From the IMG/VR virus record IMGVR_UViG_3300037486_000366, positions 1-61,175 of that record: a stretch of DNA of 61,175 bases; one strand, 5' to 3'. The translations under genes and the position numbers were made by a program. Origin of the DNA: a virus. Lineage: Duplodnaviria > Caudoviricetes. Of this stretch, positions 11,820 through 52,041 are shown piece by piece (within the stretch, counting starts at the first letter, position 1; each line of letters opens with the position of its first letter). Under the pieces are notes generated by a model, which made no database searches, was not told the origin of the DNA, and was given only the letters and a program-made list of their open reading frames with translations.

Positions 11820-11875
11820 GGAATTAAATGATAATTTTGATCTATCAACTAAAATGAGAAAGGAGAATGAAGAAG

Positions 11876-12844
11876 ATGGCAGCAAATGTTGAAAGTATGG
11901 CGTACAATGGAGCAGTTCCTTGGCATGGTTTAGGTGTGCCTGTTAAGGAAAACTTAACCCCTGCTGAAATTCTTGTGGCAGCTTCTCTTAACTGGTCGGT
12001 ACGGCGTGAAGGTATAGTTACTTCCGTATCAGGGCAGACGATGCTTGATCATTACGCATTAGTAAGAGATGTAGACAACCAGATTCTTGGTATCTGTGGC
12101 AAAGAATATCAGCCCTTCCAAAACAGTGAGGTGTTTGATTTCTTCACTAAATTCGTTGAGGCCGGTAAAATGGAAATGCATATTGCCGGTTCACTTCTTA
12201 ATGGCAAGTACATTTGGGCACTTGCTAAAATCAAAGATGGACAGTTTAATCTGATGGGCGATGATCCTAATTACTCTTACTTACTTATGGTTTCTCCTCA
12301 CGTATGGGGTAAAGCCATGACGCTTCTATTTACCTCAGTACGAGTGGTATGCTGGAACACTATGAACATGGCATTAAGTAGGATAATTGCTGAACGTTTC
12401 AGGATCCTTCACAATCGTACCTTTCCGGAATTAAAAGCAGCCGCTCAAGATACCATTGAACAGGTGTTAGTTGTGAAAGAGAAATACGCGCAGCAAGCAT
12501 TACTACTTGCACAAGCTAAAGCCGAGAAAGACCAAGCACTTGAATACTTCGCTCGCCTTGTAAGCCCAAAAGCACTTGACAGTTTCAGTAAGATTAGTGA
12601 CCTTAATGAGCTCAATGATAATGCTCGCAGAATTATTTACAACTTTGAAAAAGGTCCGGGGGCAGAGCTTGTATCAGCAAAGGGAACATGGTGGGGCGCA
12701 TTCAATGCAGTCACACGATTTGTCGATCATCAGCAAGGACGATCAGGTCAAGACAAACGTTTGTATGATTCTTGGTTGGGTATAAAGAGCAAGTTGAAAC
12801 ATCAGGCTCTTGATCTTGCAATTGAGTATGCCGAAGCAGCTTAA
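11876..12844 (+). CDS. DUF932/DUF945-family (LGT_TIGR03299-like) phage/plasmid protein
   Basis: MAANVESMAY..VPWHGLG, YQPFQN, AGSL.NGK.IW.LA, VRVVCWNT, GTWWGAFNAVT..DH. Confidence 0.9.
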   Translation: MAANVESMAYNGAVPWHGLGVPVKENLTPAEILVAASLNWSVRREGIVTSVSGQTMLDHYALVRDVDNQILGICGKEYQPFQNSEVFDFFTKFVEAGKMEMHIAGSLLNGKYIWALAKIKDGQFNLMGDDPNYSYLLMVSPHVWGKAMTLLFTSVRVVCWNTMNMALSRIIAERFRILHNRTFPELKAAAQDTIEQVLVVKEKYAQQALLLAQAKAEKDQALEYFARLVSPKALDSFSKISDLNELNDNARRIIYNFEKGPGAELVSAKGTWWGAFNAVTRFVDHQQGRSGQDKRLYDSWLGIKSKLKHQALDLAIEYAEAA

Positions 12845-13423: not shown

Positions 13424-13876
13424 ATGCAACAATTCCTTCAAAAAGAAATTGACTCCCACCTTGGATATATTGAAAAATTAACCGCCATGGATGATACTGC
13501 AAGGGTAATAGCACAAATAAAAGAAGAAATTGATCCTTCATTAAGCGTCTCATTACACGCTGGTGTTACCCTTACACAAATTCAAGGAATTATGGTAATG
13601 ATTTACCCAAAACATTTTGATGAAGTTAAATCAGTTCTCAAACTATTTGCTTTAAATGGTTTTTATATTAATGGTAAACCAGAGGATTATGCAGAAATAA
13701 GTAGACGTACATGGAGATTAAAATCAAAAGAACATTCTACTCCAGTTAGTATATGTGCTTTTTTCTCTGACTATAAAGAGGGGCAGGGTTGTAAATTTGT
13801 TAAGGTTGGAGTTAAAGAAGCGCCAGTCTATAAGCTCATGTGTGATACAGAGGAGGTGAAAGAAGATGCCGAATAA
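13424..13876 (+). CDS. Hypothetical protein
   Basis: AGAAAGGAG RBS before ATG 13424. Confidence 0.7.
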   Translation: MQQFLQKEIDSHLGYIEKLTAMDDTARVIAQIKEEIDPSLSVSLHAGVTLTQIQGIMVMIYPKHFDEVKSVLKLFALNGFYINGKPEDYAEISRRTWRLKSKEHSTPVSICAFFSDYKEGQGCKFVKVGVKEAPVYKLMCDTEEVKEDAE

Positions 13877-14666
13877 GTTTGGCAAATCAACAGATAAAAC
13901 ATATCTGTCTTTAGATAATGCCGAGGAGCGAGGTTTTATACACCGTGATTATATTGCTCATTGCTTACGCTGGACTCATATTGTTAAATTTCTCCAGGAA
14001 AAACAACGATATAAGACTGCATATGTAATGGACATAGGTTGTGGACAAGAAGCTCCGTTACTTAAAACACTTTACACCTCTCGTCTTTTACCTTATGTCT
14101 ATTGTGGTGTAGATGTTGGACCTATTAAGATTTTCAATACAATGCCGGCGTTACGGAAATTTGCTTTTAGTGAAGATCATATGGAAGGTATCTTATTAAT
14201 TCCTGAATGTAATATTCTAGAATTAGAACCTCCACCAACATACCAACATGCTCCTGATGTAATTGTAATGTTTGAGGTACTAGAACACAATGAAAAGGAA
14301 ACAGGGGTCAAGATTCTAGAAACCCTGAAAAAATTTGGTGGCCCACAAACAACCTTATTTATATCTACTCCATGTTATGATGGTAAAAACCTTGCTGCAA
14401 ACCATGTATATGAGTGGAGCTATAATGAGTTAGCAGCAGAACTTACAAAACACTTTATTATTGAAAATGTCTGGGGAACGTTTGCATCTATAAGAGATTA
14501 TGATCATAGGTTAGACCAAATATCTATCGACGGTTTATCTGAAATTTTCAGAAGAATGCGAGAATACTATGATGTTAACTACCTTGCGACGATTTTTGCT
14601 CCTCTGTTTCCTGAGCTTAGTCGTAATTGTCTTTGGCAATTGCATTACAAGCACCAGCTTGCTTGA
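13866..14666 (+). CDS. Class I SAM-dependent methyltransferase
   Basis: VMDIGCG motif I, DVIVMFEVLEH motif, LFISTP; GGAGGTG RBS. Confidence 0.85.
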   Translation: MPNKFGKSTDKTYLSLDNAEERGFIHRDYIAHCLRWTHIVKFLQEKQRYKTAYVMDIGCGQEAPLLKTLYTSRLLPYVYCGVDVGPIKIFNTMPALRKFAFSEDHMEGILLIPECNILELEPPPTYQHAPDVIVMFEVLEHNEKETGVKILETLKKFGGPQTTLFISTPCYDGKNLAANHVYEWSYNELAAELTKHFIIENVWGTFASIRDYDHRLDQISIDGLSEIFRRMREYYDVNYLATIFAPLFPELSRNCLWQLHYKHQLA

Positions 14667-15018
14667 TTTTAAACAGCATAAGTCGCCTACACTTGTAGCT
14701 TCGTGGTATGATTATAGTATCAACAACAGGATGATTAGTAAAACAAGGGCTACCTGTGCTAGTCGTGATTTCCCACGTTATTCTTATTTAATAGTAACTA
14801 ACCTAGATAATGGTAAAAGTGTTAGGTGCTTTGTAAACGATTATATAGAGCATCCTGATCGACACGTTGATCTATCAAGTCATGCCTTTAAACAAATAGC
14901 AAATTTAAAATTAGGATTAATTCAAGTAAAAATAACTGGAGGTAGTGATGCGGGAACTAACACCAATTCAAGAAGTAAAAATAAAACTATTGTATCAGGA
15001 CTCAATAATTCCAACTAA
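14569..15018 (+). CDS. RlpA-like double-psi beta-barrel (lytic transglycosylase-like) protein with N-terminal TM/signal
   Basis: ASWY, TCASRDFP, VTNLDNGKSV...VND, R.VDLS..AF.QIA. Confidence 0.75.
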   Translation: MMLTTLRRFLLLCFLSLVVIVFGNCITSTSLLDFKQHKSPTLVASWYDYSINNRMISKTRATCASRDFPRYSYLIVTNLDNGKSVRCFVNDYIEHPDRHVDLSSHAFKQIANLKLGLIQVKITGGSDAGTNTNSRSKNKTIVSGLNNSN

Positions 15019-15409
15019 GTCACGGGAAGGGGATGCGGGGTTTGATGTGTATGCTCTCAAATCAGTGTTGATTTGGCCACAACGATGGTATAAGTTTCCA
15101 TTAGGTTTTGCTATGGAAATTCCACAAGGATGGGTAGCAATGGTAAGTGAACGTTCAGGAATGGCAGCTAATAAAGCATTATTTACTATAGGCAACATCA
15201 TCGACTCAACTTATCGTGGAGAAGTACACGCAATAGTTTATAATGGGGATGAAGCGAATAGATGGCAAATAAATGTAGGAGATAAGATAGCTCAAATCCT
15301 AGTAATCCCCTGTTATACTGGAATTAATTTACGCGTAATGAAACGTTTATCTGAGACAGATCGTGGGGATAAAGGTTTCGGTTCAAGTGATGTGGAGGAT
15401 AAACGATGA
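14948..15409 (+). CDS. dut: Trimeric dUTPase
   Basis: AGFDV, RSG, IDSTYRGE, GDKIAQ and RGDKGFGSS: all five motifs. Confidence 0.93.
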   Translation: MRELTPIQEVKIKLLYQDSIIPTKSREGDAGFDVYALKSVLIWPQRWYKFPLGFAMEIPQGWVAMVSERSGMAANKALFTIGNIIDSTYRGEVHAIVYNGDEANRWQINVGDKIAQILVIPCYTGINLRVMKRLSETDRGDKGFGSSDVEDKR

Positions 15410-16407
15410 AAGATCAAACTGGAATTATTGTTCTTGATGGCCCTGATGCATGTGGCAAAACAACTTTACAACAAGCCTTTGTTGAACAAGCTGGTGCTAT
15501 ACCAATTCATTTAACTTACCCAGCTCCAAATGGTCTTAGTATGTTTGAGTATCAGACAAGAGAAATGGTTAATGCTATTAAGTTATCAGATGCTAACCTT
15601 GTTATAGTTGACCGTCATTGGATTAGTGAAAAATTATATGCTAAAGTTTTTCGTGATGGTAGTCCATGGCCTTTAATGGGACAGATGATGCATTATATCT
15701 TGTTAAAACAAGCAGCCCTGTATATCCTTTGTTTACCACATACAATTCCTTTGACATTAAAACGTCACAATGAAAACATTGACCAGAAGCATCCTTATCC
15801 AGATGATAAATTTACAGAGTTACTCAATGAATATCTTGATTTCTGGGAAGAACGAGCATATAACTTCTTTTTTATGCGGTATAGAATAGAGTTTGAAGGG
15901 GCTGATATGCGGTTTTTTATTTCCCAAGCACTGGAAAGATTACGAACAAATATTAGATCGCAGTATTCTCCAGCTCTTAATGTCAATGAACGTAATATTT
16001 CAGGTCACTTACTCAAAGCAAAATGTTTACTTGTTGGTTTGCAATTAAACCCTAAATATTTTCATGAACAGTTTGATGCGAACTATCCATTTTATGAGTA
16101 CGGAAACTCAAGTTTGTTTTTACATCAAACATTAAATAAGGTAATGAAGCGAGGGAAAATAGATCCAGAGTATTTTATGTGGACGAATGTCTATCAACTG
16201 GATTTTTTAACATCAGCACACTTATCACCATTACATGAAAAAGGATTAAAGATAATTACCCTTGGTAAAGAAGCTGAGAAGGTTGTTAAGCGAATTAATT
16301 TACCTTATAATGCTATACCTCACCCACAATATATCAAAAGATTTGGTGAAGGTGTGACAGATTATGAGAAACTATTATGGGAGGCAACGGAGCATGTTTT
16401 CTACTAA
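15406..16407 (+). CDS. dNMP (thymidylate-kinase-like) kinase fused to a UDG-superfamily-like domain
   Basis: P-loop DGPDACGKTT, VDRHW.SE; C-terminal LLVG...PF...SS.FL...WTN...IITLGK.A...PHPQY. Confidence 0.75.
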   Translation: MKDQTGIIVLDGPDACGKTTLQQAFVEQAGAIPIHLTYPAPNGLSMFEYQTREMVNAIKLSDANLVIVDRHWISEKLYAKVFRDGSPWPLMGQMMHYILLKQAALYILCLPHTIPLTLKRHNENIDQKHPYPDDKFTELLNEYLDFWEERAYNFFFMRYRIEFEGADMRFFISQALERLRTNIRSQYSPALNVNERNISGHLLKAKCLLVGLQLNPKYFHEQFDANYPFYEYGNSSLFLHQTLNKVMKRGKIDPEYFMWTNVYQLDFLTSAHLSPLHEKGLKIITLGKEAEKVVKRINLPYNAIPHPQYIKRFGEGVTDYEKLLWEATEHVFY

Positions 16408-17233
16408 TCCTATTTTTGCTCCAACAGCAAATATTGCTTGGGTAACTTTACTGGAGCATGTTTTAAGTAGTGGGGGGACAACTTCTCCTCGTGGTCTTAA
16501 GTCTCAAGAACTAATAAATATGACTACCTGTTGTGCTATGCATAAACCTATAGTCACTATTAAAGATAGGAAGTTAGGGTATAGGTTTCTATTTGCAGAG
16601 GCATACTGGATTTTATCTGGTGATAATCGTGTGCAGACAATTGCTCCTTATTCAAAACATATTCAGAAATTTTCAGATGATGGGCATACCTTTTTTGGGG
16701 CATATGGGCCCAAGATTGTTGAACAAATACCTTATGTTATTAGCAGTTTAATGCGTGATAAAGATACGAGGCAAGCTGTGTTAACTATATGGCGAGAGAA
16801 TCCACCACAAAGTAAAGACATTCCTTGTACTATATCAGTTCAATGGTTAATCCGAAACAATAACCTTCATTGTATTGATAATATGCGTAGTTCTGACATC
16901 TGGCTTGGTTGGCCTTATGATGTGTTTAATTTTTCAATGATAAGTTCTTATGTTCTTTTAATGCTTAAAGACCATTATCCTACATTGGAATTAGGTAATA
17001 TCAGTATGAACCTTGGGAGTGCTCATTTATACGAAAAGAATTTCAATGATGCTCAGTTATGTATAACTAATTTGAATGATTATAAGTTTCGTTATGGTAT
17101 ACTTGAGCCAAAAAAAGAATTCATTTATCCATCTGATTTATTGTATCATCTTAAGTGTGTTGCTGAGAATAGGCATTCAGAACTTAAATCACAATGGTGT
17201 TGCTGTATTGCAAGAGGCGACCATAATAAATAA
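16394..17233 (+). CDS. Thymidylate synthase homolog, probable dCMP (hydroxy)methyltransferase
   Basis: DIPC catalytic Cys; MRSSDIWLGWPYD has Asp where dUMP-specific ThyA has Asn (RSCDVFLGLPFN); SAHLY. Confidence 0.8.
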   Translation: MFSTNPIFAPTANIAWVTLLEHVLSSGGTTSPRGLKSQELINMTTCCAMHKPIVTIKDRKLGYRFLFAEAYWILSGDNRVQTIAPYSKHIQKFSDDGHTFFGAYGPKIVEQIPYVISSLMRDKDTRQAVLTIWRENPPQSKDIPCTISVQWLIRNNNLHCIDNMRSSDIWLGWPYDVFNFSMISSYVLLMLKDHYPTLELGNISMNLGSAHLYEKNFNDAQLCITNLNDYKFRYGILEPKKEFIYPSDLLYHLKCVAENRHSELKSQWCCCIARGDHNK

Positions 17234-17247
17234 ACAAGGAGAAAGAT

Positions 17248-17973
17248 ATGTTAAAGCCAAAGGAACTAGACATTGAAGGACTAAAGACACTAATCATTAC
17301 TGAATTAGCTTCTATCGAACGTGTGGGTATTGATAAGTTACTTGTTTATCTTACTAAAGACACAGATTATTTTACAGCTCCATCATCAGCTTCGTTTCAT
17401 TATGCTTTTCCTGGTGGTCTTGCTGCCCATTCATGGAATGTTTTTAATTTACTAACAGCTAAAATAGAAATGTTTAATATCCCTGTTCAGACTGATAGCA
17501 TTTCTATTGTAGCTTTACTTCATGACCTCTGTAAAGTAAACTTTTATGAGGTAGATAATGATCCACCGAGTGATGCTCAAATAAAATATCTACGTGATCT
17601 AGCGAAACGAGAATATTATCAGATTCCCCCTGATCATATGACAAAGGGGTATGTTAGTTCCTTAATAAATTTCTATAAGAATGGAGGAGAGAAACCTGAA
17701 TTCAAAACTACGTATAAGTTTAATGATCAGTTTCCTATGGGACATGGAGAAAAAAGTGTTATCCTTGCACAAAACTATATCCAATTACGTGATGAAGAAG
17801 CCATTGCTATACGTTGGCATATGGTTGCTTTTGACGCTGGTATTCATTTTAATTACCCAAGTGGTTTTCCATTCAGACAAGCTGTTGAAAAATATGCACT
17901 GGTTACTCTCCTCGCCACTGCAGACATGGAAGCTTCTAATATCTTAGAAAGTGAGAGAGAATATAAGGAATAA
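17248..17973 (+). CDS. HD-domain phosphohydrolase
   Basis: APSS..FH....GGLAAHS, LLHDLCK, GHGEKS, AIRWHM, AD. Confidence 0.88.
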   Translation: MLKPKELDIEGLKTLIITELASIERVGIDKLLVYLTKDTDYFTAPSSASFHYAFPGGLAAHSWNVFNLLTAKIEMFNIPVQTDSISIVALLHDLCKVNFYEVDNDPPSDAQIKYLRDLAKREYYQIPPDHMTKGYVSSLINFYKNGGEKPEFKTTYKFNDQFPMGHGEKSVILAQNYIQLRDEEAIAIRWHMVAFDAGIHFNYPSGFPFRQAVEKYALVTLLATADMEASNILESEREYKE

Positions 17974-18187: not shown

Positions 18188-20035
18188 ATGTGGTTACCAC
18201 CAACTGAATTACCTAGTCTTGAGTCAGCTAAAAAAATATCTATTGATATAGAAACCCGTGACCCTCATCTTAAAGAAAAGGGACCTGGTACCTTTCGCAA
18301 AGATGGCTATATCGTTGGTATTGCTGTTAATACAGGTGATGGGTATAAACAGTACTTTCCTGTTGGCCATGATAATGGGGGAAACTTAGATAAGCAGGTT
18401 GTTTATTCCTGGTTAAATGATGAGTTATCACGTGATTGGCAACCAAAAGTAGGGGCTCGTATATCTTATGATATGGAATGGTTATGGCAAGCAGGGGTAC
18501 AAATTAAAGGTCCTAAGTATGATGTAACAATTGCCGAAGCCCTATTAAATGAAAATAAGTTTAGGTATAACTTAGATAGTATTGCTGCAGAGCGTTTAGG
18601 TAAGCATAAATTTAATCAAGAATTAATTCAAGTCGCTTCTCGATACAAAATAAAACCAGACAAAGTTAAACAGCACATGAATATCTATACCCCACAGGAG
18701 GTTGCTCCTTATGCAATTGAAGACACAGAATTACCTCTTGAAATTTTTGCACAGCAGGAAATTGAACTTAAAGATCAGGAATTATGGCCTTTATTTATTC
18801 TGGAAACTAATCTCCTTGACTGTCTTCTTGCAATGCGTCTTCGTGGAGTTCCTATTGACGTCAGAAGAGCTGAGCAATTACAAGAAGAATTTATTCTTCG
18901 TGAAAAAACGATGCAAGAATATCTCAATTCTTTTGCCGGTTGCTCTATCCAAATCTGGGCTGCTGACTCGATTTCAAGAGCGTTTGATATTGCAAATATT
19001 CCATACCCTAGAACACCAAAGACTAATAAACCGTCTTTTACAAAGGACTGGCTTGAAAACCATCAATCAGAACTTGCCAGATTAATACTAGAACTTCGTC
19101 AAGTTCATAGATTACGAAACTCGTTTATTGAAAAAATGATTCTTGAACATAGTATCAATGGTCGTATTCATCCAGAGTTTCATCCTGTTAAACATGATGA
19201 AGGTGGAACTGTAAGTGGTAGGTTTAGCTCAAGTAATCCTAACCTTCAACAAGTTCCTATACGTCACCCAGTTTATGGGCCATTGATTCGTAGTTTATTT
19301 ATTCCTGAACATGGGGGTGAGTGGAACAAGAATGACTATAGTCAGCAAGAACCAAGGTTAACAGTTCACTATGCTTATTTAAGAGGTTATCCTGGTGCTC
19401 AAGAAGCTAGAGATCGTTATATCGCTGATCCAAATACCGATTATCATACGTTCACAGCAGAGCTTTGTAATTGTGAAAGACGTCTTGCAAAAGATATTAA
19501 CCTTGGTCTAGCATATGGTATGGGTATCGAGAAAATGGCAGCAAAATTAAATTTGCCTATTGATACTACAAAAACCTTGTACCAAATGTATCATAAAAAA
19601 ATTAGGTATATGAAACCACTTGCTATTGATTTAATGAATCTTGCTGCTACTAGAGGATACATTAAAACAATTTTAAATAGACGTAGACGCTTTGATTCAT
19701 GGGTTCCACCTGGGAAGCATGAAGAAAAAATAATTCCTTTGCCTTATGAAGAAGCAAAAGAAAAATGGGGACTTCCACTTAAACGTGCATTTACACATAA
19801 AGCACTAAATGGTTTGATACAAGGGTCTGCTGCTGATATGATTAAAAAAGCAATGTTAGATTGTTATCATGCAGGATACGTCCCACATTTAACTGTACAT
19901 GATGAGCTTGATCTTACAACTAATAGTCCAAAAGAAAGACTTATGATAAAAGATATTATGCTTAATGCATTAAAATTAGAAGTTCCTTTGAAAGTAGATT
20001 CCTTTGTTGCTAAGAATTGGGGGGAATGTAAATGA
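18188..20035 (+). CDS. polA: Family A DNA polymerase with 3'-5' exonuclease domain
   Basis: ExoI DIET, TVSGRFSSSNPNLQQ, motif A DYSQQEPR, motif B KDINLGLAYGMG, motif C VHDE; no 5' nuclease domain. Confidence 0.96.
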   Translation: MWLPPTELPSLESAKKISIDIETRDPHLKEKGPGTFRKDGYIVGIAVNTGDGYKQYFPVGHDNGGNLDKQVVYSWLNDELSRDWQPKVGARISYDMEWLWQAGVQIKGPKYDVTIAEALLNENKFRYNLDSIAAERLGKHKFNQELIQVASRYKIKPDKVKQHMNIYTPQEVAPYAIEDTELPLEIFAQQEIELKDQELWPLFILETNLLDCLLAMRLRGVPIDVRRAEQLQEEFILREKTMQEYLNSFAGCSIQIWAADSISRAFDIANIPYPRTPKTNKPSFTKDWLENHQSELARLILELRQVHRLRNSFIEKMILEHSINGRIHPEFHPVKHDEGGTVSGRFSSSNPNLQQVPIRHPVYGPLIRSLFIPEHGGEWNKNDYSQQEPRLTVHYAYLRGYPGAQEARDRYIADPNTDYHTFTAELCNCERRLAKDINLGLAYGMGIEKMAAKLNLPIDTTKTLYQMYHKKIRYMKPLAIDLMNLAATRGYIKTILNRRRRFDSWVPPGKHEEKIIPLPYEEAKEKWGLPLKRAFTHKALNGLIQGSAADMIKKAMLDCYHAGYVPHLTVHDELDLTTNSPKERLMIKDIMLNALKLEVPLKVDSFVAKNWGECK

Positions 20036-20439: not shown

Positions 20440-20879
20440 CAGAAAAAGAAATGTGGGCAACACTATATACTCAATTAAAAAAAGATTGTTCAATGACAAG
20501 ATTAGAAAATGCTGTATCTTTTGGTATACCTGATTTAATTATTGGTTATATGAACAGATCTTTTTGGGTAGAAACTAAAATTGATAAAGGTGGTTTCTTT
20601 CTAATTCGTCCGAGTCAGATAGCATGGCACATAAAACATATACAGTGCAATTGTCTGGATGCTTATTTTCTAGTCTATATGAAAAACGAAGCATATAGAC
20701 TTTACTTAGCAAAAGATTTATTGCAATTTGAAAATTTAGAATCTTATGGAAATGTAACGCGAGTTTTACTACGTGATTATATTACATGGTTTCAAACATT
20801 AGACCCGCGTGGGTTAAAAGGAATATTAAATTATATGTTTATTTGTACAAAAGAATTTGATGGGAAAGGAAGTGATTAA
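20436..20879 (+). CDS. VRR-NUC / Holliday-junction-resolvase-like PD-(D/E)XK nuclease
   Basis: RLEN...GIPDL...WVETK...RPSQIAWH. Confidence 0.8.
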   Translation: MTEKEMWATLYTQLKKDCSMTRLENAVSFGIPDLIIGYMNRSFWVETKIDKGGFFLIRPSQIAWHIKHIQCNCLDAYFLVYMKNEAYRLYLAKDLLQFENLESYGNVTRVLLRDYITWFQTLDPRGLKGILNYMFICTKEFDGKGSD

Positions 20880-21207
20880 TTTGGTTTTTGTCATCCAGGA
20901 AAATGCAACAAAGAATATCTCACCAGCACTAGAATATGGTGAACTAAAAATTCTTTTACCACCAGGTCAGGTGACCTTTTCTCCCGGTCCTAGTATCGCT
21001 AGGTTACGACGTGGGTTAAAGAATTTTAGTGATAATGATTATTTACTCTGTATTGGAGACCCAATAGCGATAGGTATGGCTTCAATTATTGCGGCAGAAA
21101 ATAATGCTGGTAGAGTAAAATATCTGAAGTGGGATAATCAGGAACACCGTTACTTACCTATTACAGTTGATGTAAATTTCGCTAGAAAGGAGATTGATAA
21201 TGACTGA
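20860..21207 (+). CDS. Conserved phage replication-module protein of unknown function
   Basis: VFVIQE...A.EYGEL...DYLL.IGDP...LKWD...Y pattern common in PolA/UvrD phage modules. Confidence 0.7.
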   Translation: MGKEVINLVFVIQENATKNISPALEYGELKILLPPGQVTFSPGPSIARLRRGLKNFSDNDYLLCIGDPIAIGMASIIAAENNAGRVKYLKWDNQEHRYLPITVDVNFARKEIDND

Positions 21208-21778
21208 TTTTATAGATGAGCTTGCAGCTGATTCATTAAATATACCAGAAGTAGATGATCTTTCACTTTTAACTGAATTAGTTAAAAAGCATCTTACAAT
21301 AGAAAATGAAATTGAAATGATGGTATATGAACTAGCAATAAAGCAAGGGGAACTTCGAAACTTATCTGAAAAAATAATTCCTGAAATTTTTGAACGGTTA
21401 AATCTTGAAGAAATCAAACTTAATAATGGCGTAAAAGTTAATGTAAAACCATTTTATGCTGGGACTATTACCGCAGAAAATCAACCTGCTGCGTTTACTT
21501 GGTTAAAGGAAAATGAGCATGATGATTTAATTAAGAACGAATTAAAGTTAACGTTCGGAAAGGGGGAAGAGGAAACTTGTTTAGGTCTAATGGAATCATT
21601 AGAAGTAGCAGGGTATAACTTTGTTAATAAGAAATCAGTCCACCCACAAACATTAAAAGCATTTATTAAAGAACAAATTGAAGCGGGTAATAAGGAATTT
21701 TCAAGCGCAATGGACCTTTTTAGTGTTCATATTGGGAAACAAACAAAGATTAAAATTCCAAAAGGAGGAATAGTTTAA
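21200..21778 (+). CDS. Conserved phage protein upstream of SSB
   Basis: AF.WL.EN.H.DLIKN, VHPQTLKAFIKEQ. Confidence 0.75.
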   Translation: MTDFIDELAADSLNIPEVDDLSLLTELVKKHLTIENEIEMMVYELAIKQGELRNLSEKIIPEIFERLNLEEIKLNNGVKVNVKPFYAGTITAENQPAAFTWLKENEHDDLIKNELKLTFGKGEEETCLGLMESLEVAGYNFVNKKSVHPQTLKAFIKEQIEAGNKEFSSAMDLFSVHIGKQTKIKIPKGGIV

Positions 21779-22569
21779 TGGCCAAAGTAAAAGATAAAGA
21801 AGTATTGGTAAAAGAAACTTATAGTAGTCAAGCGTTAGTAATTGAAGATATGGTTACTGATGCAGAATTAGGACTAGAGGACATTGGTGCTGGTGATGTA
21901 GCTCTTCCTTTTCTATCTATTTTACAATCAGGAAGTCCACAAGTAAAACGTGGTGAACAACAAGTTGAAGGAGCAGTTGAAGGTGACGTCTTTAACACTG
22001 TTACTCTTGATGTTTACAATGGTGAAGAAGGTATTTTCGTTGTCCCTTGTATGTATAAGAAAGCATATGTTGAATGGAAACCAAGAGAAGCAGGTGGTGG
22101 TTTTGTAATGCAACATGAAAGTGAACATGTAATGCAGCAAACAAGAAAAGATGCAAAGGGCAGAGACATGCTTGAAAATGGAAACATTATAGTTCCTACT
22201 GCTTATCACTATGTTTTACTTATTAATCCAGTTTCAGGAGATTCAACTCGTACAGTAATAGGTATGAGTAGTACACAGTTAAAGAAATCTAGACGCTGGA
22301 ATGCAGTAATGACAACCTTAAAACTTCAACGTAATGATGGGACCAAGTTTACACCAGCAATGTTTTCTCACATGTATAAATTAACAACTGAAGCTGAGTC
22401 AAATGAACTTGGTGCTTGGTCAGGGTGGAAAATAGAAATTGCTGGTTTAGTTCCTTCTAAAGAAATATATGCTTCTGCTAAAAAATATTCAGCAGATCTA
22501 AAATCAGGAGCTATCAGAGAAGCTGCTCCCCCGCGAACTGACTTTCAGGACAGCGATGCGCCGTACTAA
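21778..22569 (+). CDS. Putative single-stranded DNA-binding/annealing protein
   Basis: LPFL.ILQ..SPQ, YVEW.PR..GGG, M.STQLKKSRRWN; acidic tail ending in an aromatic residue (DSDAPY). Confidence 0.7.
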   Translation: MAKVKDKEVLVKETYSSQALVIEDMVTDAELGLEDIGAGDVALPFLSILQSGSPQVKRGEQQVEGAVEGDVFNTVTLDVYNGEEGIFVVPCMYKKAYVEWKPREAGGGFVMQHESEHVMQQTRKDAKGRDMLENGNIIVPTAYHYVLLINPVSGDSTRTVIGMSSTQLKKSRRWNAVMTTLKLQRNDGTKFTPAMFSHMYKLTTEAESNELGAWSGWKIEIAGLVPSKEIYASAKKYSADLKSGAIREAAPPRTDFQDSDAPY

Positions 22570-33460: not shown

Positions 33461-33700
33461 TTATATATAAGACAACGTTAAGTAATCAGACCAACGCTGA
33501 TTAAACCTATCATCACCATCAGGATATTTTATAATTAAGCTTGATGTTTCATCGAGACGTTTAATTTGCCAAACATATTCAGAATCAAGTGCTCCTGGTT
33601 TAGCTTTACCAATATATGTAATTGGGGCAACTTCAACCATTCTTAATGTATATTCTTGACTTATTATCCTAACTACTTCATGTCCAGCAAAAATTTCCAT
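33461..33700 (-). CDS. Small conserved phage protein
   Basis: TYIGKA.PG....VWQIKR...Y.DG...F...W. Confidence 0.65.
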   Translation of the reverse strand: MEIFAGHEVVRIISQEYTLRMVEVAPITYIGKAKPGALDSEYVWQIKRLDETSSLIIKYPDGDDRFNQRWSDYLTLSYI

Positions 33701-36700
33701 TATTCAAGTAACCTTACACGTTCTGCTTTATTAGGAACATATAGTGCTTTAGCTTGACGTTTAAGTGATTCTTTAGTAATCACTGGAACTTGTCCACCCA
33801 GATTATATCTTACCACAAGATTATTATATTGTACAACTTTATCCATCGTCTTCTGTAACATTTTAGAATCATTTGACATTAATGAATTACGATACTGCTC
33901 ATAAATGTCATCACGCATTTGAGTAAAGTTTTCCCGTTCCATGAGGGCTTCTGATCGTCTCTCTACCATAGTAGCTTGCTGAGCAGATCTAAATCCTAGA
34001 ACCCGTGCCCCAGTCTCAAATGCACTTGCTTTATAAGGCATTCCTTGATTATTAAATACTGGTGTACCTTTGGTTGTAGTTACACCAGAAAGTTCTCTAT
34101 ATGCCTTAAATAAATTACCAATACCAGTTGGTAAAGTCTTTTCCGCAGCTCTACCATATTCTCCTAACTTAGTATAATGTAAAGCATCGCCCACATCTTT
34201 CACTAGTCCACCACCTACACCAAGTAACTCATACATATTTCGTGGTAGTCCAGCATTAATGTTTAATGATCCAGACACATCTAATCCAAGGGCTCCAATG
34301 AGTCCGTGTCTCAAGATAGTTTCTGATGATTTCCCCATGGATTTACGTGTCTTGTCCCAGAACCATTTTTCAGCATCAACCTTTATTCCTAGCAATCTTA
34401 ACAGGGCATTAAAGATACCTACCCAAATATCTTTAAGTGGGGCTACAGCCATACCTGCTAAGAAAATAGGAGACATTAAACCATATAAGAAGCCTTTAAC
34501 ATTCTTCTTTTTGAAACCAACATCATAAAGCATCTGTAAATAATTATGGGGAAACTTCTGGAATGTATACAGCATCTGAAATAATTTAGCTGCTGGATTT
34601 TTCCCTAACGCATACGAAGGTAATGTTGCCTTACCATACACAGCATGTGCTTTATTAGAAGCATCATATGCTTTTGCTACAGCTTCATCATGAGTAAGGT
34701 CAGGATTATTTTTCTTTGCTAATCTATATGCTGCAAGTATTGTTGAACCTCTAATCCATTGTTCTGATTTCTTAAACCCAAACAAGGCTAAACCAAGGGA
34801 CTGGTTCCAAATACGGCCATGGGTTCTTTGTAACGTGCCCATAGCGTCTTGCATATATTGAGGCATATCATAGCCTTTTTCATGTATCTCATCAACAAGT
34901 TTCTGTTCATTAGCATTAGGTAATTCTTGTCCACGCATAACACCGATGTAGTCTTTACTTGAACGAGTAATTTCTGCTCCAATACTTGCTAAACTACCTT
35001 TACCGCCCATAACATATTGATGAATAGCAGTAGGAACAGTGGTTCCAAGGGCAAGCACATTGACAAATAATGTTCGGGGGTTAAACCCGAGATATTTAAA
35101 AGAAGCTACAGATTTAGCATAACCAATTAATCTATCAGTATTATCTGCATTACGTAATTGTTCTTCAACATATTTAGTAGCTACTTCATAAGCACGTCTT
35201 TCTTTTTGTTCGTCAATTCCACCGACTTTCTTTTTACTACCCTCTTCGTCAGTAACATACTTACCAGTAATTGTGCTGAACATATTTTTAGCTGCTTCAG
35301 CTTTAGCTAGTCCAGCAGAAATATTTCCCACATACCTAACAAACCGTTCGCCTGGATCTACGATATAACCTCGGACTATTTTATCCTTACGTCGACGAAT
35401 CATCGACCCTCTAAATCCTCGAGCTTTAATTATATCTGCAATATTATCAAGCAGTTCATTTTCAAACTTCATCCTTAGTTCAGGAGCTTCAAGTTTAGTT
35501 CCTTTCATTGCTAGATTAATTGCTTGATGTATACTAACAAGGCGTAAGTTACCATAAACATCTTCATGAAGTCGTTCACGTTCTTTTATCGGTTCAATAG
35601 TAAAACCTTGACGGGTAAGTGATGCAGCTAAACGTTCTGCAGCTAACCTATTCGATTTATGATAACGAACTTCTTCTTCTTCACCACGTTTACCTACTAC
35701 TTCCCATTCACCTACTTCACGTAAACGAGGAGCATAGGAACCTTTTAATTGTCCCATTGTGTGAAGAACTTCTTTAAGATTAACAGTAGTTATTTTTCCT
35801 TCTTCATCGTATGTTTGAAACTGAGGATATTGTGGTTTTTTATTTTTTGCTTTAGCTTCATCTTCTACCTCAGTTACTGTTTTAACTAAGGGCTCCATAA
35901 GTAAATCTAAAGCCTTGTCATATGCTACTCTATGTGCCTTATATAACTCAAGTACATCTTGTGGAATATTTTGATTCTCAAGATATTGCAAATATGACAT
36001 ATCAGGATTATCTACTTTCTCTCTCCATTCACCTGTATCACCTTCATCAACTATACGAGAAAATAGCTTATAATCATCTGATGTTTCCCCTCTAACTATT
36101 TGCCACCGTGTAAGACCTTTATTTCTAAGAGCAGTTGTTCGCTGAGAAACAGTCTCATCAGAATTTTCAATTTCATCAAGGGTATGAAATAATTCATAGT
36201 AACGATCATGCCGTTTAATGGCAAGGTCAACAAGTTTACGTAGTACTGGATGACTGTACCATTCAGGAGAACGTAAAAGTCTTTCCATAAATGTCAAGGC
36301 TGGAAGATTTCGTGGACGCTGAGCTGAAATTGTTTTTAATAAAGCTTTCGCCTCTTCTCCCCAGAAGTTTTTAAGAACTGCTGGATCAAGCTCATTGAGA
36401 TTTGGGTCTAGCGTACCTTGCTTAGAAACCTTAGCATACTTAATTGGTTGTTTTGCTTTCTCTACTTGAACATTTTGCTTACGATACATTTCCTGAAATT
36501 CTGTGTTTGAGAAAGATCTCGAAGACCCGTCTGTAAACTCAATAACGAAAGTGTTAGTTGCCTCATTCTTGAAAACTTTATCTACTTTACGTAAACCTAT
36601 GATCTTATCAACACGTAACCTATTAGGTTGGATGAAGCCTTTCTTTTCGTTATATTCTCCAGCTCTAGGATTAGGTATCATTACTTTACCATAATCTTTT

Positions 36701-39700
36701 ACTATATAACCTTTCATCTTTTTAGAAGTAGATTCTAGTTCACGCAAACCTTCTTTAGAAACTCTAGAAAATTTCCCAGGTTTATCATATCTAGCCGCAG
36801 TAAAACGTTTACTAAAGTTACCTGTATAAAATGAAGGGGGTACTTTTTCTCCTTCATTAAGTCTAACTACGTCATCAATATAATTAGCTAAGTTTACCTG
36901 ATCTTCTGAAGATATTGTTGCTTTATCTTTTCCAAGAACTGGGACATTTTCAAGTTTAAATGATGGAACCAGCTCTAATAGTTCTGCTTTATCTGCCTCA
37001 TTACTAAACACATCATCAAAGAATTTTTGTTCAGTTGGCGTAAGATATGTTCTAATTTCCTTTTTAGTTGGCTCTAATTCTTCTAACATAGACTTTATTT
37101 CATTCTTATACAAATTAATTGTTTCTATGTCAGGAATATCTTTACTCTTCTCAACCACAATCTTTTTTTCAAGAAGGTCAATTACACTATTGGTTCTTAA
37201 TAAATGATTTTCTTCTGCAGATCTTTTTCCTGGGATAATGTTTGCTACTCTATCTTTAAAATTATCATAAAGAACCTTATCTTCTTTAGAGATAAAATCT
37301 ATTACATTAGTTTTTTCAGTATAAAGATTTTGTAAATCTTTAAAAGATAAAATTTCTTCCTGCCCATCAATAATAAATTTAAGGTCAGTTACTTTTGTAG
37401 CAGGGTCTATCTTAACTTCATTATCTTGAACCCCTTCACTTTCAATGGCTTTAGTGGGAAAAATGATAGCCACAGAAATTTTATCATTAGCCCCATAAGC
37501 AACTATCGGGGAAATATTACTGATTAATTGTGCAGATATTCCAGGGTAGCCTTCAAAATCTTCCCCAACAAATAACTCATTATTCTCTACAATTGAACGA
37601 AGTTCATCGATCGTAGTTATCCTTGTAGCTGTATTAGGTTTAATTGTTCCTACATAAAGTTTATTTTTTAAATTGTCTTTTAAAGCAATCTTCGTACCAA
37701 CTGATTTTTCTATTGAAATAGGAGTTGCTTTATTAAAAGCTTCCTTAATTTCTTCCATTGTAACTATTACTTTAGGATATGTAACGATTGCCTTACGCCC
37801 TACTAAATTATCGAGAGCTTCAAATTCATGACTAGGTTTTTCTGCAAGAAAACGTTGGCTTCGAGCTAACAAGGCTTTGATGTCACCATCCGTATAAGTT
37901 TTTACTATTCCCCAATCACGAAACTTATTGCGAACAAAGGCTATAATCTTTTCCCATAATGTTTCAGATAATTGATTTTTAGGGTCTTGTGCTTGAAATG
38001 CTAAAAATTCTTCAGCAGCTAATAATTGACCACGATTACCACTAGTGCCTGATGAATCACCTTCAATAGACTCATCTATTTCGTATTCTTTCACAACTGT
38101 CTTCATTAAAGGTGTATCTTTATAACTACTATATATTTGGCGCAAAATAGGTTTAAATTCTTCTACACCTAGCATTTCCCACATGCCATGATGAACTAAT
38201 GCTTCATGTAAAAGAGTGCCAAGTGCTTCATCTAAATCTGCAATCTGATCTGCAAAAAGATGAATAGCAATATACCCATCATTATTTGGCCAATATACTC
38301 CAGGAATAAATTGCGTCTCAAGGTCAGCGTTTAAAAGAATATCAACAGGGACGTCTGGATGATAAATAGAATCATAGATCGTGACTATAGGTAAACCTGG
38401 ATGTTCTTCAACAAACTTGTCAATATGGGTCGCAATATCTTTTGCTTTTAAGTTCCCTGCTTTTTCATGTGTTCTTGGTTGTTTGACCTTAGCAAATTTT
38501 TTAGGAATAGCAGTTAATTTATCTTTTTGAAGAATTTCAATATTATTTTCATCAAAATCTATTCCTGTACCATGTTTACCAACTTTAGCTGCCTTAACTC
38601 CAACAAGAGTAGTTGCTACCTTATTAAAGTAATCTATTAAACCATCAATTTGTCGATCAAACTGACTCTTTTCTTCTGAAGTTGCAAAATGAGTGTTTAA
38701 TAAGCCATCATCAAATGATGCTGATAATTGGCCTAGGTAATCAGACAAATGAACCAGGTTGACTTTACTTTCGTCACCAAGATGCCATCGATTATTAATC
38801 ATAGTAGACAATGCGTTTAATAAAGAGGGTAAATCTCCCGTTGTCTTGGGGACTAACGTATTTGTCTTTTTATTAAGGGTTAATACTCGAGTTGAAAGGT
38901 CTTTGTTTTCTTGAGCCGTTTGAAACAAGGGATTTAAGGCTATAAGCTTATGCTTCTTTGCAACAGGTTTCTCTTTTGCAATCTCAGCACGAAGAGCCAT
39001 TTCTTCACGTTTCTCTTCTTCAATTCTATCATCAACCATTTCCTGAATTTCTTTTTCACTTAATTCAGAAAAGTCAGTAGAGAACATATCATATAAATCA
39101 GCTCGACGTTCTTTTTCTTCTTGTTCAGTCATTAAAGGAACTTCAAGCGGGGCAATTTCTTCTTCAGGTTCTTCGACTTTTTCTTCTGTTATTTTTGCCA
39201 TTGCACGTTGATCTGCTGCTTCCTCACGTTCCTCTTCAGTCATCGTGCCTTTTTCTTTCCAAGTACCTTCAGTAGTCTGTTTCCATTGTTTAACAAGGGT
39301 TTTATGCTCAGCAACTTCTTCAGTTGGAACAGCTTCACCTTGCTGTAGTCTTGCTAGAACGTTACGATAACGGGCTTTCTTTTTTAGTGTCTTCTTTACT
39401 TCTGGTAAAGTTTTAATAGAAGGTTCACCTACATAAACATAAGATAAAGTAACCCCACCTTTAATATCTTTTTCAATTTGAGATATATTAGAAAAATCAG
39501 GTTTATTTTTTTCACCAACAAACTCAAATGTATGTTGTGAATATGTTTTATTTTTTAAGACACTTGAAATAGCTTCAGGTAAAGTGTTATAGGTTTCTTG
39601 CCTAATTAACTCTTGATTAGGTTCTATACTTTCTTGTTTATGTTCAACTATATACTTTCCATCCTCCTCTGAAATATCTGCATAAGCTTTATCAAAGGTA

Positions 39701-46710: not shown

Positions 46711-47412
46711 TTACGCAAAAATATCAGTTCCAATAAATGGTTTATCAAAACCTGACAATATACAGGCATGATTTGCAAAGTCTAATGCAACATTTAAATT
46801 TAATACAGGAACTTTATAAGCTTCATTATTAGTACAACATTGTCTATATCGTAAAAAATGAAGAGCAATTTTATCTTCATCTTCAGAAGTAAGTTCATCT
46901 TTATATTGCATTGACCTAAACATTATATGTATCTTACCAAATGACTTCGGGCTATGACAAAATCTTGCCTTCACATCAAGATTAGGGTAATACTGAGAAA
47001 GATAAGTATTAATATACTGTATATCTAATGGGCAAAACCAACAACGCATTTCATATGGCAATTCATTATCAATACAAATTTGTGCTGCTTTTAAACAGGG
47101 CACACTCCCTTTAAGTGCTTTTGCTGGTTCGGTAAACTCTGCCCCTAACTTCCCATCATAGAAATATCCTTCAAGATATTGTTTCCAATTAATATTCCAC
47201 CCAGTTAATAAAGCAAATCCTGGCCAATCATACATATAAGCAGTTTTATTAGCAATCATCCAAGTAAGACAATCAAGATGAGACTGTTTAACGTCACTCA
47301 TAGTTATACTCTGGACTATATTAACTGGATATGCCCACATTGCTCGTCCTAAAAGATATTGTTTAAGCACTGATAATTGTACAGTATCTGTTATTGTATA
47401 TGTCCAATTCAT
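46711..47412 (-). CDS. Cys-containing protein of unknown function (radical SAM cassette)
   Basis: ATGA overlap with the glycosyltransferase; 9 Cys; no recognised family. Confidence 0.7.
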   Translation of the reverse strand: MNWTYTITDTVQLSVLKQYLLGRAMWAYPVNIVQSITMSDVKQSHLDCLTWMIANKTAYMYDWPGFALLTGWNINWKQYLEGYFYDGKLGAEFTEPAKALKGSVPCLKAAQICIDNELPYEMRCWFCPLDIQYINTYLSQYYPNLDVKARFCHSPKSFGKIHIMFRSMQYKDELTSEDEDKIALHFLRYRQCCTNNEAYKVPVLNLNVALDFANHACILSGFDKPFIGTDIFA

Positions 47413-48398
47413 AATAATGCTATAAACTCCTGTTTAAATTGTTCATAGTTAAATCTTTCTTTACCTGCCAATGCTATTATATGGGCTTCTTTTTCAAAAC
47501 TGGAAAGATCAGCATTTTTTATTTCCAAAAGATTTGCTATCATAGTATCAACATCATTTGTTTCATAATGAAGACCATCACACCAATTTACCCAATTTCC
47601 ATCAAACGTTCCAGAGTTCCTATCATTTACAATTAATGGAATTGTCCCAGTAAAAATAGCTTGCATAATAGTTGCATTAAAAGGTTCATACCCATCATGT
47701 GGTAAAATAAAGAATTTATAGTTATTAAGTTCTTTAGGCACCTCTGACTGTTTAATAAAGCTATTTAACTTTAAATTACCTGAGGATTGTGCACTAAACA
47801 ATAGATCATAGTAATCATTTTTAGATATAGGAAAAGACCAAGTCCAAGAAGGTTCTTCAGCATTCCACATTTTCCCAAAACACTCAATAAACAAGTCAGT
47901 TTGTTTTATCTTCTGAATAAACTCAACAGAAAATTTATGAGGAAGAACATGCCCAAAATAACAGAATAAGTTACGTTTGTTCCATGGAATCACGTAAGAA
48001 AAAATATCTGCTGTTGGGTAAAAACGATTCAATATTTTTGAATCATACAGAGTAGTAACAGCAGCAGGTTTCTTATTCAATATAACTATATATTCTGCCT
48101 TATTAAATAGTGGAACATACTCAGGTAAAAATAATTCTTTCCAAACATGTGCAATAACAATTAAACGTGTTGATGGATTATCAGTAATATAATTAAGAAT
48201 ATGTGTTATGACATTCGGGTAAAGCTCATTTAAAATAATTAAATCAGGAGTAAGTAAACTAAATGCATCATAGTAATTAATTCCTTGTTGCTTTATTACT
48301 GATATATCTGGATTTGCTTCTTTTACCCATTCACCAATAATTGAACCATAGTATTCAATGGCTGAACCAACATTAAGATTTACAAATACTATTTTCAT
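47409..48398 (-). CDS. GT-B fold glycosyltransferase (GT4-like)
   Basis: MKIVFVN, PDLIILNE, FCYFGH, FFILP...YEPFNATIMQAI.TG..P (E-x7-E/Q motif). Confidence 0.78.
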   Translation of the reverse strand: MKIVFVNLNVGSAIEYYGSIIGEWVKEANPDISVIKQQGINYYDAFSLLTPDLIILNELYPNVITHILNYITDNPSTRLIVIAHVWKELFLPEYVPLFNKAEYIVILNKKPAAVTTLYDSKILNRFYPTADIFSYVIPWNKRNLFCYFGHVLPHKFSVEFIQKIKQTDLFIECFGKMWNAEEPSWTWSFPISKNDYYDLLFSAQSSGNLKLNSFIKQSEVPKELNNYKFFILPHDGYEPFNATIMQAIFTGTIPLIVNDRNSGTFDGNWVNWCDGLHYETNDVDTMIANLLEIKNADLSSFEKEAHIIALAGKERFNYEQFKQEFIALL

Positions 48399-51663: not shown

Positions 51664-51692
51664 TTTGTTTTTCTCCTCTTGAGTAGCGACCG

Positions 51693-52040: not shown

Positions 52041-52041
52041 C

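Follow-up and report, generated by a model that had tools for sequence, protein, structure and literature searches.

A predicted dCMP hydroxymethylase and a linked methyltransferase in a candidate cytosine-modification module of a Caudoviricetes phage

The DNA considered here is a stretch of 61,175 bases from a virus of the Caudoviricetes (IMG/VR record IMGVR_UViG_3300037486_000366; hereafter, the window), which represents a whole phage genome; its replication block is on the plus strand, and portal, terminase and capsid proteins are encoded on the minus strand. According to the list of open reading frames (ORFs) of the window, six plus-strand ORFs lie back to back at positions 13866–17973, ahead of the gene for the DNA polymerase PolA. 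With moderate confidence, we interpret this cluster as a T4-style, pre-replicative module for the modification of cytosine. A reading made from the sequence alone (the sequence-only reading) had placed five genes together in front of PolA, namely those for a methyltransferase (MTase), a dUTPase, a fusion of a deoxynucleoside monophosphate (dNMP) kinase with a domain resembling uracil-DNA glycosylase (UDG), a homologue of thymidylate synthase (TS) and an HD hydrolase; all five were recovered on the plus strand by family and fold matches. The TS homologue is predicted to be a deoxycytidine monophosphate (dCMP) 5-hydroxymethylase, and its gene and the active-site codons that underlie this prediction are the following.

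16394–17233, plus strand: TS-fold enzyme of 279 amino acids, predicted dCMP 5-hydroxymethylase (ORF open from 16364; PF00303 Thymidylat_synt, E 2.1e-20)
16817–16819, plus strand: GAC, Asp152, three residues before the catalytic Cys (Leu143 in E. coli, Asp145 in T4), part of the hydroxymethylase signature
16826–16828, plus strand: TGT, the catalytic Cys by alignment (E. coli Cys146)
16895–16897, plus strand: GAC, Asp178, at the position of E. coli Asp169, which is Asn in 5-hydroxy-dCMP synthases
16919–16921, plus strand: GAT, Asp186, at the position of E. coli Asn177, the cytosine-specifying residue

The last of these codons specifies residue 186 of the 289-residue ORF, which is residue 176 of the 279-residue protein starting at ATG 16394; the latter length is that of a 100% identical protein (P0001), and a GGGAGG sequence is found upstream of this ATG. 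The sequence-only reading had put the encoded Asp at the site of Asn177 of E. coli ThyA, and two sets of alignments agree: in those made with HMMER to solved TS chains the Asp falls on the Asn within the motif PFNIAS of TS, and in those made with MAFFT it falls on Asn177 of E. coli K-12 ThyA. The catalytic set of the TS homologue is complete in the alignment (Cys, Arg166, Glu58, Tyr94 and His207/Tyr209; E. coli numbering here and below). A word-index search identified 2057 homologues of this protein at E≤1e-5.

Four activities toward dCMP or dUMP are documented among phage members of the TS fold, and several residues that distinguish them have been described. Asn or Asp at position 177 is reported to select uracil or cytosine, respectively (PMC8670742, PMC13326640), the replacement N177D leading to a preference for dCMP; an acidic residue at position 143 goes with hydroxymethyl products and a hydrophobic one with methyl products (PMC13326640). 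Asp177 is also described as enriched on metagenome contigs with modified cytosine (PMC8670742). Ser167 and Arg126 accompany deoxyribose substrates, and Ala and Lys in their places accompany ribose substrates (PMC5175136). Since the TS homologue combines the cytosine-specifying Asp with the Ser/Arg pair of deoxyribonucleotide users, dCMP is its likely substrate, in agreement with the dCMP specificity that the sequence-only reading had deduced from the Asp.

We compared four diagnostic positions, 143, 147, 169 and 177 (Leu, His, Asp and Asn in E. coli ThyA), with those of fetched enzymes whose product is known.

TS homologue of the window, product predicted: D/T/D/D, with S167 and R126
T4 gp42, 5-hydroxymethyl-dCMP (5hm-dCMP): D/T/D/D
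SPO1 gp29, 5-hydroxymethyl-dUMP: D/N/D/N
RB69 gp48, 5-hydroxy-dCMP: E/T/N/D
Xp12 dCMP methylase, 5-methyl-dCMP (5m-dCMP): N/P/D/D
E. coli ThyA, dTMP: L/H/D/N

The D/T/D/D pattern, together with R126 and S167, is found in all 41 clade members aligned, that is, the window, Stenotrophomonas phage AXL3, Pelagibacter phage HTVC119P and 38 IMG/VR loci. The acidic residue three positions before the catalytic Cys is Asp in the window as well as in T4 gp42, SPO1 gp29 and the hydroxymethylase MilA, as opposed to Asn in Xp12 and Leu in ThyA; in T4, this residue (Asp145) activates the substrate water, and the D145N variant is inactive (PMC6400193). Among solved structures MilA is also the best relative of the TS homologue (E 5.1e-19, 72 bits), compared with E 4.7e-14 for the best TS. 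Because of the invariant D/T/D/D pattern and the match to MilA, 5hm-dCMP is favoured over 5m-dCMP as the probable product. The sequence-only reading had named either compound; the Asp before the Cys, along with the restriction behaviour of AXL3 DNA described below, speaks for the hydroxymethylated one and makes the methylated one the less attractive choice. The Xp12 methylase (L041, 45326–46195) has Asn at the position of Leu143 and Pro at the position of His147 in the alignment; owing to this Asn, the rule that a bulky hydrophobic residue at 143 means a methyl product holds only approximately for Xp12.

The closest cultured carriers of the TS homologue are the Pelagibacter phages HTVC119P and HTVC200P, at 52–55% identity, followed by AXL3 and Pseudoxanthomonas phage PW916, at 43%. 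In AXL3 the order of genes is MTase (gp31), nucleoside triphosphate (NTP) pyrophosphatase (gp30), a 327-residue 'thymidylate kinase' (gp29), the TS homologue (gp28) and dCMP deaminase (gp27). The products of the window match those of AXL3 at 34% identity for the MTase and gp31 (E 2e-40), 26% over the full length for the kinase fusion and gp29 (E 6e-23), and 43% for the TS homologue and gp28 (E 5e-76). Published digests of the DNA of AXL3, a phage that is also reported to encode ThyX, describe cleavage by only two enzymes from a panel of 37, both of which recognise sites made up of A and T alone; KpnI and Eam1105I were in the panel (PMC7504290). In a survey from NEB, KpnI-HF completely cut Xp12 DNA, which contains 5-methylcytosine (5mC), the digestion of this DNA by AhdI is given as complete in the text and as partial in Table S3, and T4gt DNA, which contains 5-hydroxymethylcytosine (5hmC), resisted both enzymes (PMC7653180). 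Phage AXL1, of the 5mC type, was partly cut by KpnI and Eam1105I. We take Eam1105I and AhdI to share a recognition site. Because KpnI and Eam1105I (as AhdI) cut 5mC DNA and fail on 5hmC DNA, the DNA of AXL3 behaves like DNA with 5hmC or a bulkier base and unlike 5mC DNA, as known from published restriction resistance at G/C-containing sites only. A weak hint of a modification beyond plain 5hmC in AXL3 comes from XbaI, which partially cuts T4gt DNA, yet is absent from the enzymes that cut AXL3 DNA.

These data bear on the alternative that the TS homologue is a dCMP methylase of the Xp12 type, in which case the phage DNA would contain 5mC and the deaminase found in the relatives would turn part of the 5-methyl-dCTP into dTTP. 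Such an enzyme would likewise carry Asp at position 177, and five of seven deaminase-linked Asp177 TS homologues from metaviromes are reported to have made 5m-dCMP (bioRxiv 10.1101/2024.12.05.627091); the gene neighbourhoods described in that preprint are resembled by those of the relatives, where genes for a PRA-PH protein and a dCMP-deaminase-family protein are found beside the TS homologue and PolA. However, a methylase would be expected to have a non-acidic residue three positions before the Cys, which would permit hydride transfer, and all 41 clade members have Asp there; Xp12, the sole methylase aligned, has Asn at this position and Pro instead of Thr after the Cys. The abolition of T4 hydroxymethylase activity by D145N (PMC6400193), the pairing of Xp12 with E. 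coli ThyA away from the clade in the tree (see below), and the absence of AXL3 from the DNAs cut by KpnI and Eam1105I also argue against a methylase. No gene for a deaminase or dihydrofolate reductase (DHFR), nor for ThyX, a PRA-PH protein or a glycosyltransferase, was found among the other window ORFs scanned (41 against PHROGs, 39 against Pfam; this scope applies to all such statements below). The lack of DHFR fits a hydroxymethylase, because such an enzyme releases tetrahydrofolate and needs no DHFR, which is encoded by the Xp12 group. On balance, a methylase of this type appears unlikely, although 5m-dCMP is the main rival to 5hm-dCMP as the product.

Besides the metavirome enzymes, the similar neighbourhoods and the assumed identity of the Eam1105I and AhdI sites, several further points weigh against a hydroxymethylase. 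A proposed hydroxymethylation signature (PMC6400193) includes Ser or Thr at the second position ahead of the catalytic Tyr, and the window and its clade have G-A-Y at this place, where T4 has Ser94. This position nevertheless fails to separate the classes, because the proven hydroxymethylase SPO1 gp29 has Ala (A-P-Y) and the Xp12 methylase Ser (S-A-Y). By BLASTP, the distance from the clade to each of the references is much the same (47–57 bits). In an IQ-TREE phylogeny of 43 rows, which included E. coli ThyA, T4 gp42, RB69 gp48, Xp12 TS and SPO1 gp29 and from which L030, L034 and L035 were dropped as truncated by contig ends, all references sit on branches of 4–10 changes per column, the backbone is unresolved and the clade is assigned to none of them. 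The firm pairs, T4 with RB69 (97/97) and Xp12 with ThyA (99/99), both fall outside the clade. With such branch lengths and such a backbone, this tree, of the kind proposed in the sequence-only reading, cannot assign a function. The hydroxymethylase assignment of the clade is a prediction from its sequences. Finally, no MazG-like or other recognisable dCTPase was found among the window ORFs scanned, so the replacement of cytosine may be incomplete in this phage.

Other activities of the TS fold fit less well. 'Thymidylate synthase' is the label carried by AXL3 gp28 and HTVC119P gp16 in GenBank and by JGI entries, and the window ORFs scanned include no other TS, as would be expected if the enzyme simply converted dUMP to dTMP. 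Against this stand three residues (Asp, Asp and Thr at positions 177, 143 and 147, where ThyA has Asn, Leu and His), as well as the scores of the NCBIfam TS equivalogs, which are far below their cut-offs (at best 56.8 bits versus 327, for NF002497); moreover, AXL3 and the IMG/VR relative L039 additionally carry ThyX. We therefore regard an ordinary TS as highly improbable. Very unlikely, too, is a flavin-dependent 5-hydroxy-dCMP synthase like RB69 gp48, with which the window enzyme shares an acidic residue at 143 and Asp at 177, or a hydroxymethylase of the ribonucleotide CMP like MilA, its best solved match. The replacement D169N, described as the mark of the flavin-dependent synthases and present in all those tested (PMC13326640), is absent from all 41 clade members, and the window ORFs scanned include no glycosyltransferase; the determinants of ribose binding in MilA, Ala176 and Lys133, are replaced in the window by Ser and Arg, the deoxyribose type.

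If the enzyme is a dCMP hydroxymethylase, the cluster suggests the following pathway. The TS-fold enzyme would bind dCMP through the Asp at the position of ThyA Asn177 and add the methylene group of 5,10-methylene-tetrahydrofolate at C5; owing to the Asp three residues before the catalytic Cys, water would be added instead of hydride, yielding 5hm-dCMP. This would be phosphorylated by the kinase domain of the fusion and converted to the triphosphate by the host nucleoside diphosphate kinase, and the adjoining phage PolA would incorporate it, with the dUTPase keeping the DNA free of dUTP. In a further step, the MTase would modify either the hydroxymethylated nucleotide or the DNA base, and the UDG-fold domain would contribute by binding a pyrimidine base or nucleotide. 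What the analysis shows is which genes are present, their folds, active-site residues and linkage, together with the published restriction phenotype of a cultured relative; what the TS-fold enzyme makes, what the MTase acts on, what the UDG-fold domain does and how much of the cytosine is replaced are inferred. The other genes involved, with the remaining members of the cluster, are these.

13866–14666, plus strand: class I MTase dependent on S-adenosylmethionine (SAM), 266 amino acids, virus-specific and of the small-molecule MTase type (PF13489 Methyltransf_23, E 9.5e-10)
14569–15018, plus strand: RlpA-like DPBB protein with a hydrophobic N-terminus (PF03330 DPBB_1, E 1.7e-09)
14945–15409, plus strand: dUTPase of the trimeric type (PF00692, E 1.1e-26)
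15406–15960, plus strand: dNMP (thymidylate-type) kinase domain, residues 1 to about 185 of the 333-residue fusion (phrog_761, E 1e-08)
15940–16407, plus strand: UDG-superfamily (family 4/5-like) domain, residues about 179–333 of the fusion (structural alignment)
17248–17973, plus strand: HD-domain protein of 241 amino acids, like the HD domain of the 3'-5' exonuclease YhaM (phrog_28876, E 7.1e-30)
18188–20035, plus strand: PolA, family A DNA polymerase with a 3'-5' exonuclease domain (PF00476, E 1e-52; PF01612, E 1.2e-05)

A megablast search with the cluster against 50,697 phage records gave no match. The dUTPase scored 108.3 bits with TIGR00576 dut, compared with a cut-off of 102.55.

The fusion ORF (15406–16407, 333 residues) matches the thymidylate kinases of phrog_761 over residues 7–150 (E 1e-08), and its AlphaFold model has a mean predicted local confidence (pLDDT) of 94.1. 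With VIA-align, residues 4–181 of the model superimpose on thymidylate kinase 5x7j (Z 14.6, root-mean-square deviation (rmsd) 3.3, 165 residues aligned), and the kinase domain on SPbeta YorR, 2axp (Z 14.3). A wide VIA-align search aligned residues 179–333 to the family-4 UDG 1l9g (Z 11.2, rmsd 3.4, 143 residues), with UdgX 6ail (Z 10.5), 2l3f (Z 9.9) and 2d3y (Z 9.8) as other matches. The model thus indicates a UDG-type alpha/beta fold in the C-terminal part, and the fusion of a dNMP kinase to a UDG-like domain, as described in the sequence-only reading, is reproduced in both of its halves. The assignment of the second half comes from the structural alignments: a Foldseek search with the whole fusion model returned kinase-type and other P-loop matches and no UDG, and the Pfam UDG family PF03167 matched 3 of 31 relatives of the fusion (best E 3.2e-07). 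Family 4/5 UDGs are marked by four Cys ligands of an Fe-S cluster and a GE[A/G]PG-like motif A. The UDG-fold domain of the window has a single Cys, and at the motif-A-like position it reads VGLQLNPK, with Leu where most relatives have Glu or Asp (VGEQ or VGDQ). By inference, it would bind a pyrimidine nucleotide or base. That the phage uses its own kinase to phosphorylate the modified dCMP, as the sequence-only reading had it, is consistent with the location of the kinase gene directly upstream of that for the TS homologue; the phosphorylation step itself is presumed.

The composition of the module was assessed in two sets of related loci, which share some contigs, so that the two counts are dependent. 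With the TS homologue as a query, 38 IMG/VR loci were obtained, which together with AXL3 and HTVC119P make 40 loci; with the MTase as a query, 80 loci were fetched, 68 of which were assessable (at least 3.5 kb downstream). In the first set, the kinase domain is present in 36 of 40 loci, the MTase in 29 and the UDG-fold domain in 22, of which 20 have it together with an MTase and two are on contigs that end before the MTase slot; PolA is found downstream of the TS homologue in 32 of the 40. In the second set, the TS homologue lies within the 5-kb flank in 67 of the 68 assessable loci, mostly in the order MTase, NTPase, kinase, TS. A regular expression detected D/T/D/D in 64 of these 67 MTase-linked TS homologues, the remaining three being unverified by hand. 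The MTase is thus the most tightly linked, near-obligate partner of the TS clade, and this linkage suggests a further step beyond hydroxymethylation.

Two additional enzymes recur in the relatives. In AXL3, and in 9 of 10 IMG/VR loci with an MTase that were examined, a gene for a PRA-PH (MazG-like) NTP pyrophosphatase lies between those for the MTase and the kinase, and a dCMP-deaminase-family gene is found in the module, usually adjoining the TS homologue, in 9 of the 10 loci examined and in AXL3. The window has the dUTPase and DPBB genes in the NTPase slot and the HD gene in the deaminase slot. A dUTPase homologue is present in 5 of the 68 MTase loci.

The MTase belongs to a large family with many invariant residues, in which at least 1108 proteins out of 1423 candidates are related to it at E≤1e-3, and its nearest named ESM Atlas clusters are almost all viral. 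Its AlphaFold model (pLDDT 90.1) was matched by Foldseek at TM scores of about 0.5 to generic small-molecule MTases only (phosphoethanolamine, farnesyl-diphosphate and alkaloid N-methyltransferases), with no DNA methyltransferase among the matches listed. A single-sequence search of the PDB found nothing below E 0.87, and the matches from profile and hidden Markov model searches (PKMT2, HEN1 and UbiG) were confined to the SAM-binding core. Its near-obligate linkage to the TS clade and its constant place as the first gene of the nucleotide operon, together with a fold of the small-molecule type, make the modified nucleotide or base the most likely substrate of the MTase.

The generic nature of these matches, to small-molecule, lipid and protein-lysine MTases, Hen1 and UbiG, would also suit a different scenario, in which 5hm-dCMP is made but the MTase has no relation to DNA, methylating instead a small molecule of the host or phage, RNA or a protein, and is linked to the TS homologue through shared early expression. 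The nine of 40 TS loci that have no MTase, including that of the cultured pelagiphage HTVC119P, point in the same direction. What makes this scenario rather doubtful is the presence of the TS homologue within 5 kb, mostly in a fixed order, in all but one of the assessable MTase loci, the almost exclusively viral Atlas neighbours, and the restriction of the UDG-fold domain of the kinase to loci in which the MTase is present. Returning to an MTase that acts on the modified cytosine, we tentatively suggest, as an unlikely but specific version, that it O-methylates the hydroxymethyl group, either of 5hm-dCMP before its phosphorylation or of 5hmC in DNA, which would give 5-methoxymethylcytosine or another methylated derivative of 5hmC, with the UDG-fold domain recognising the pyrimidine. 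As part of the same tentative scheme, this domain might pass the modified nucleotide on to the kinase, or else remove uracil or unmodified cytosine from the DNA. The literature searched contained no mention of 5-methoxymethylcytosine as a DNA base. A complex prediction for the UDG-fold domain with the MTase gave no answer (score 0.00, mark 0.32) and is evidence neither way.

The sequence-only reading had suggested that the HD enzyme may remove dCTP, an idea that found no support. The protein scored 17.3 bits with Pfam HD, below the 22-bit cut-off, and belongs to a large family (2949 representatives at E≤0.001). Among PDB entries, a profile built from 45 members of this family matched only YhaM exonucleases (9h3f, E 1.5e-08; 9o7t, E 7e-06), and the first row of an Atlas structure search was likewise YhaM-named (TM 0.74). 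Homologues of the protein were found in none of the 40 TS-fetched loci and none of the 68 assessable MTase-fetched loci. It is therefore more likely a YhaM-like nuclease than a dCTPase and, speculatively, might release dNMPs from host DNA. Two IMG/VR relatives, L012 (6931–7899) and L039 (6906–7856), encode a full YhaM-like protein with an OB-fold and an HD domain (316–322 amino acids) directly after the TS homologue, so HD nucleases of differing form recur in the vicinity of the TS clade; ThyX and a canonical thymidylate kinase are further encoded in L039.

Compared with known systems, the core reaction is familiar and its partners are new: hydroxymethylation of dCMP is already known, and the set formed by the kinase/UDG-fold fusion and the MTase is not. 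In T4, the pathway consists of the hydroxymethylase gp42, the dNMP kinase gp1, the dCTPase/dUTPase gp56 and the dCMP deaminase cd. The window enzyme is similar to gp42 in its TS fold, its identical D/T/D/D and S167/R126 residues and the adjoining phage dNMP kinase, and with the MazG-like NTPase and deaminase-family gene of the relatives the set matches gp56, gp1, gp42 and cd. Unlike T4, the window phage has a thymidylate-kinase/YorR-like kinase, Gly in the place of Ser94 and, in place of the glucosyltransferase, the SAM-dependent MTase and a UDG-fold domain as part of the kinase fusion; neither the NTPase nor the deaminase was found among its ORFs scanned. The TS homologue and gp42 are 28.6% identical over 119 residues (47 bits), and the clade forms a separate deep lineage in the tree.

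MilA, an enzyme of mildiomycin biosynthesis (PDB 5b6d, 5jnh), shares with the window enzyme the Asp at the Asn177 position and, around the Cys, the Asp three places ahead of it and the Thr that follows it (as described in PMC13326640), but prefers CMP by virtue of Ala176 and Lys133, for which the window has Ser and Arg, and serves an antibiotic pathway instead of a phage replication module. The same module is found in the cultured phages AXL3, as its gp31–gp27 region, and PW916, with orthologous MTase, kinase/UDG-like fusion and TS homologue in the same order, the AXL3 enzyme showing D/T/D/D. AXL3 differs in having the PRA-PH NTPase where the window has the dUTPase and DPBB genes, and a dCMP-deaminase-family gene in the HD slot of the window, in addition to ThyX. 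The Xp12 enzyme has the same fold, with Asp at positions 169 and 177, and is encoded beside an NTP hydrolase and a deaminase, but it has Asn and Pro instead of Asp and Thr around the catalytic Cys, groups with ThyA and has a DHFR neighbour, and Xp12 DNA is cut by KpnI and AhdI. Fusions of UDG domains to phage family-A DNA polymerases have been described (NAR 2026, PMC13697223). The window resembles them in that a domain of the UDG superfamily is joined to an enzyme of replication or nucleotide metabolism, in a phage in which modified pyrimidines are here predicted. The domain of the window differs from those described there by its fusion to a dNMP kinase instead of PolA, its single Cys and the Leu in its VGEQ motif.

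The replacement of cytosine by 5hmC is a classic counter-defence of phages. The present clade displays a hydroxymethylase signature in a lineage far from T4, and since public records mostly label its members 'thymidylate synthase', cytosine-modified phages may be under-counted in metagenomes. If the tentative O-methylation scheme is true, 5-methoxymethylcytosine, or some other methylated form of 5hmC, is present in a large and mostly uncultured group of phages. The module is carried by two cultured phages, AXL3 and PW916, and its chemistry is therefore open to laboratory work, which could reveal a new natural DNA base or enzymes useful for epigenetic sequencing chemistry, as earlier pathway members have done.

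Several further features of the window were noted. The DPBB ORF (14569–15018, plus strand), absent from the sequence-only reading, encodes a protein with a hydrophobic, signal-peptide-like N-terminus inside a nucleotide-metabolism operon, overlapping the MTase gene by 98 nucleotides and the dUTPase gene by about 70. It matched TIGR00413 rlpA (E 3.2e-08, below the cut-off), has homologues in none of the 40 related loci and lies outside the conserved module. About 1 kb upstream of the MTase gene, a DUF932 protein is encoded (11867–12844, plus strand; PF06067, E 2.2e-39), with homologues that occupy the equivalent place in 22 of the 40 loci; this gene may belong to the same early block as the cluster. 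Between the genes for PolA and primase, three consecutive genes (20857–22569, plus strand) belong to Pam3 gp32-, gp33- and gp34-like families (PF23992, PF23984 and PF23977).

On the minus strand, a single ORF of 2884 amino acids (33700–42354) is located amid tail and virion genes. Two adjoining radical SAM genes (48871–51214, minus strand; 390 and 394 amino acids) are found in the late structural region, the first of their products having a SPASM-like C-terminus. They were considered as a DNA-hypermodification step and rejected, their weak matches being to SPASM peptide maturases (for example PapB, about 1e-08, far below the cut-off). Their neighbours, at 46711–48874 and 51217–53265, have no family matches, and the region may represent a phage-encoded peptide-modification cassette.

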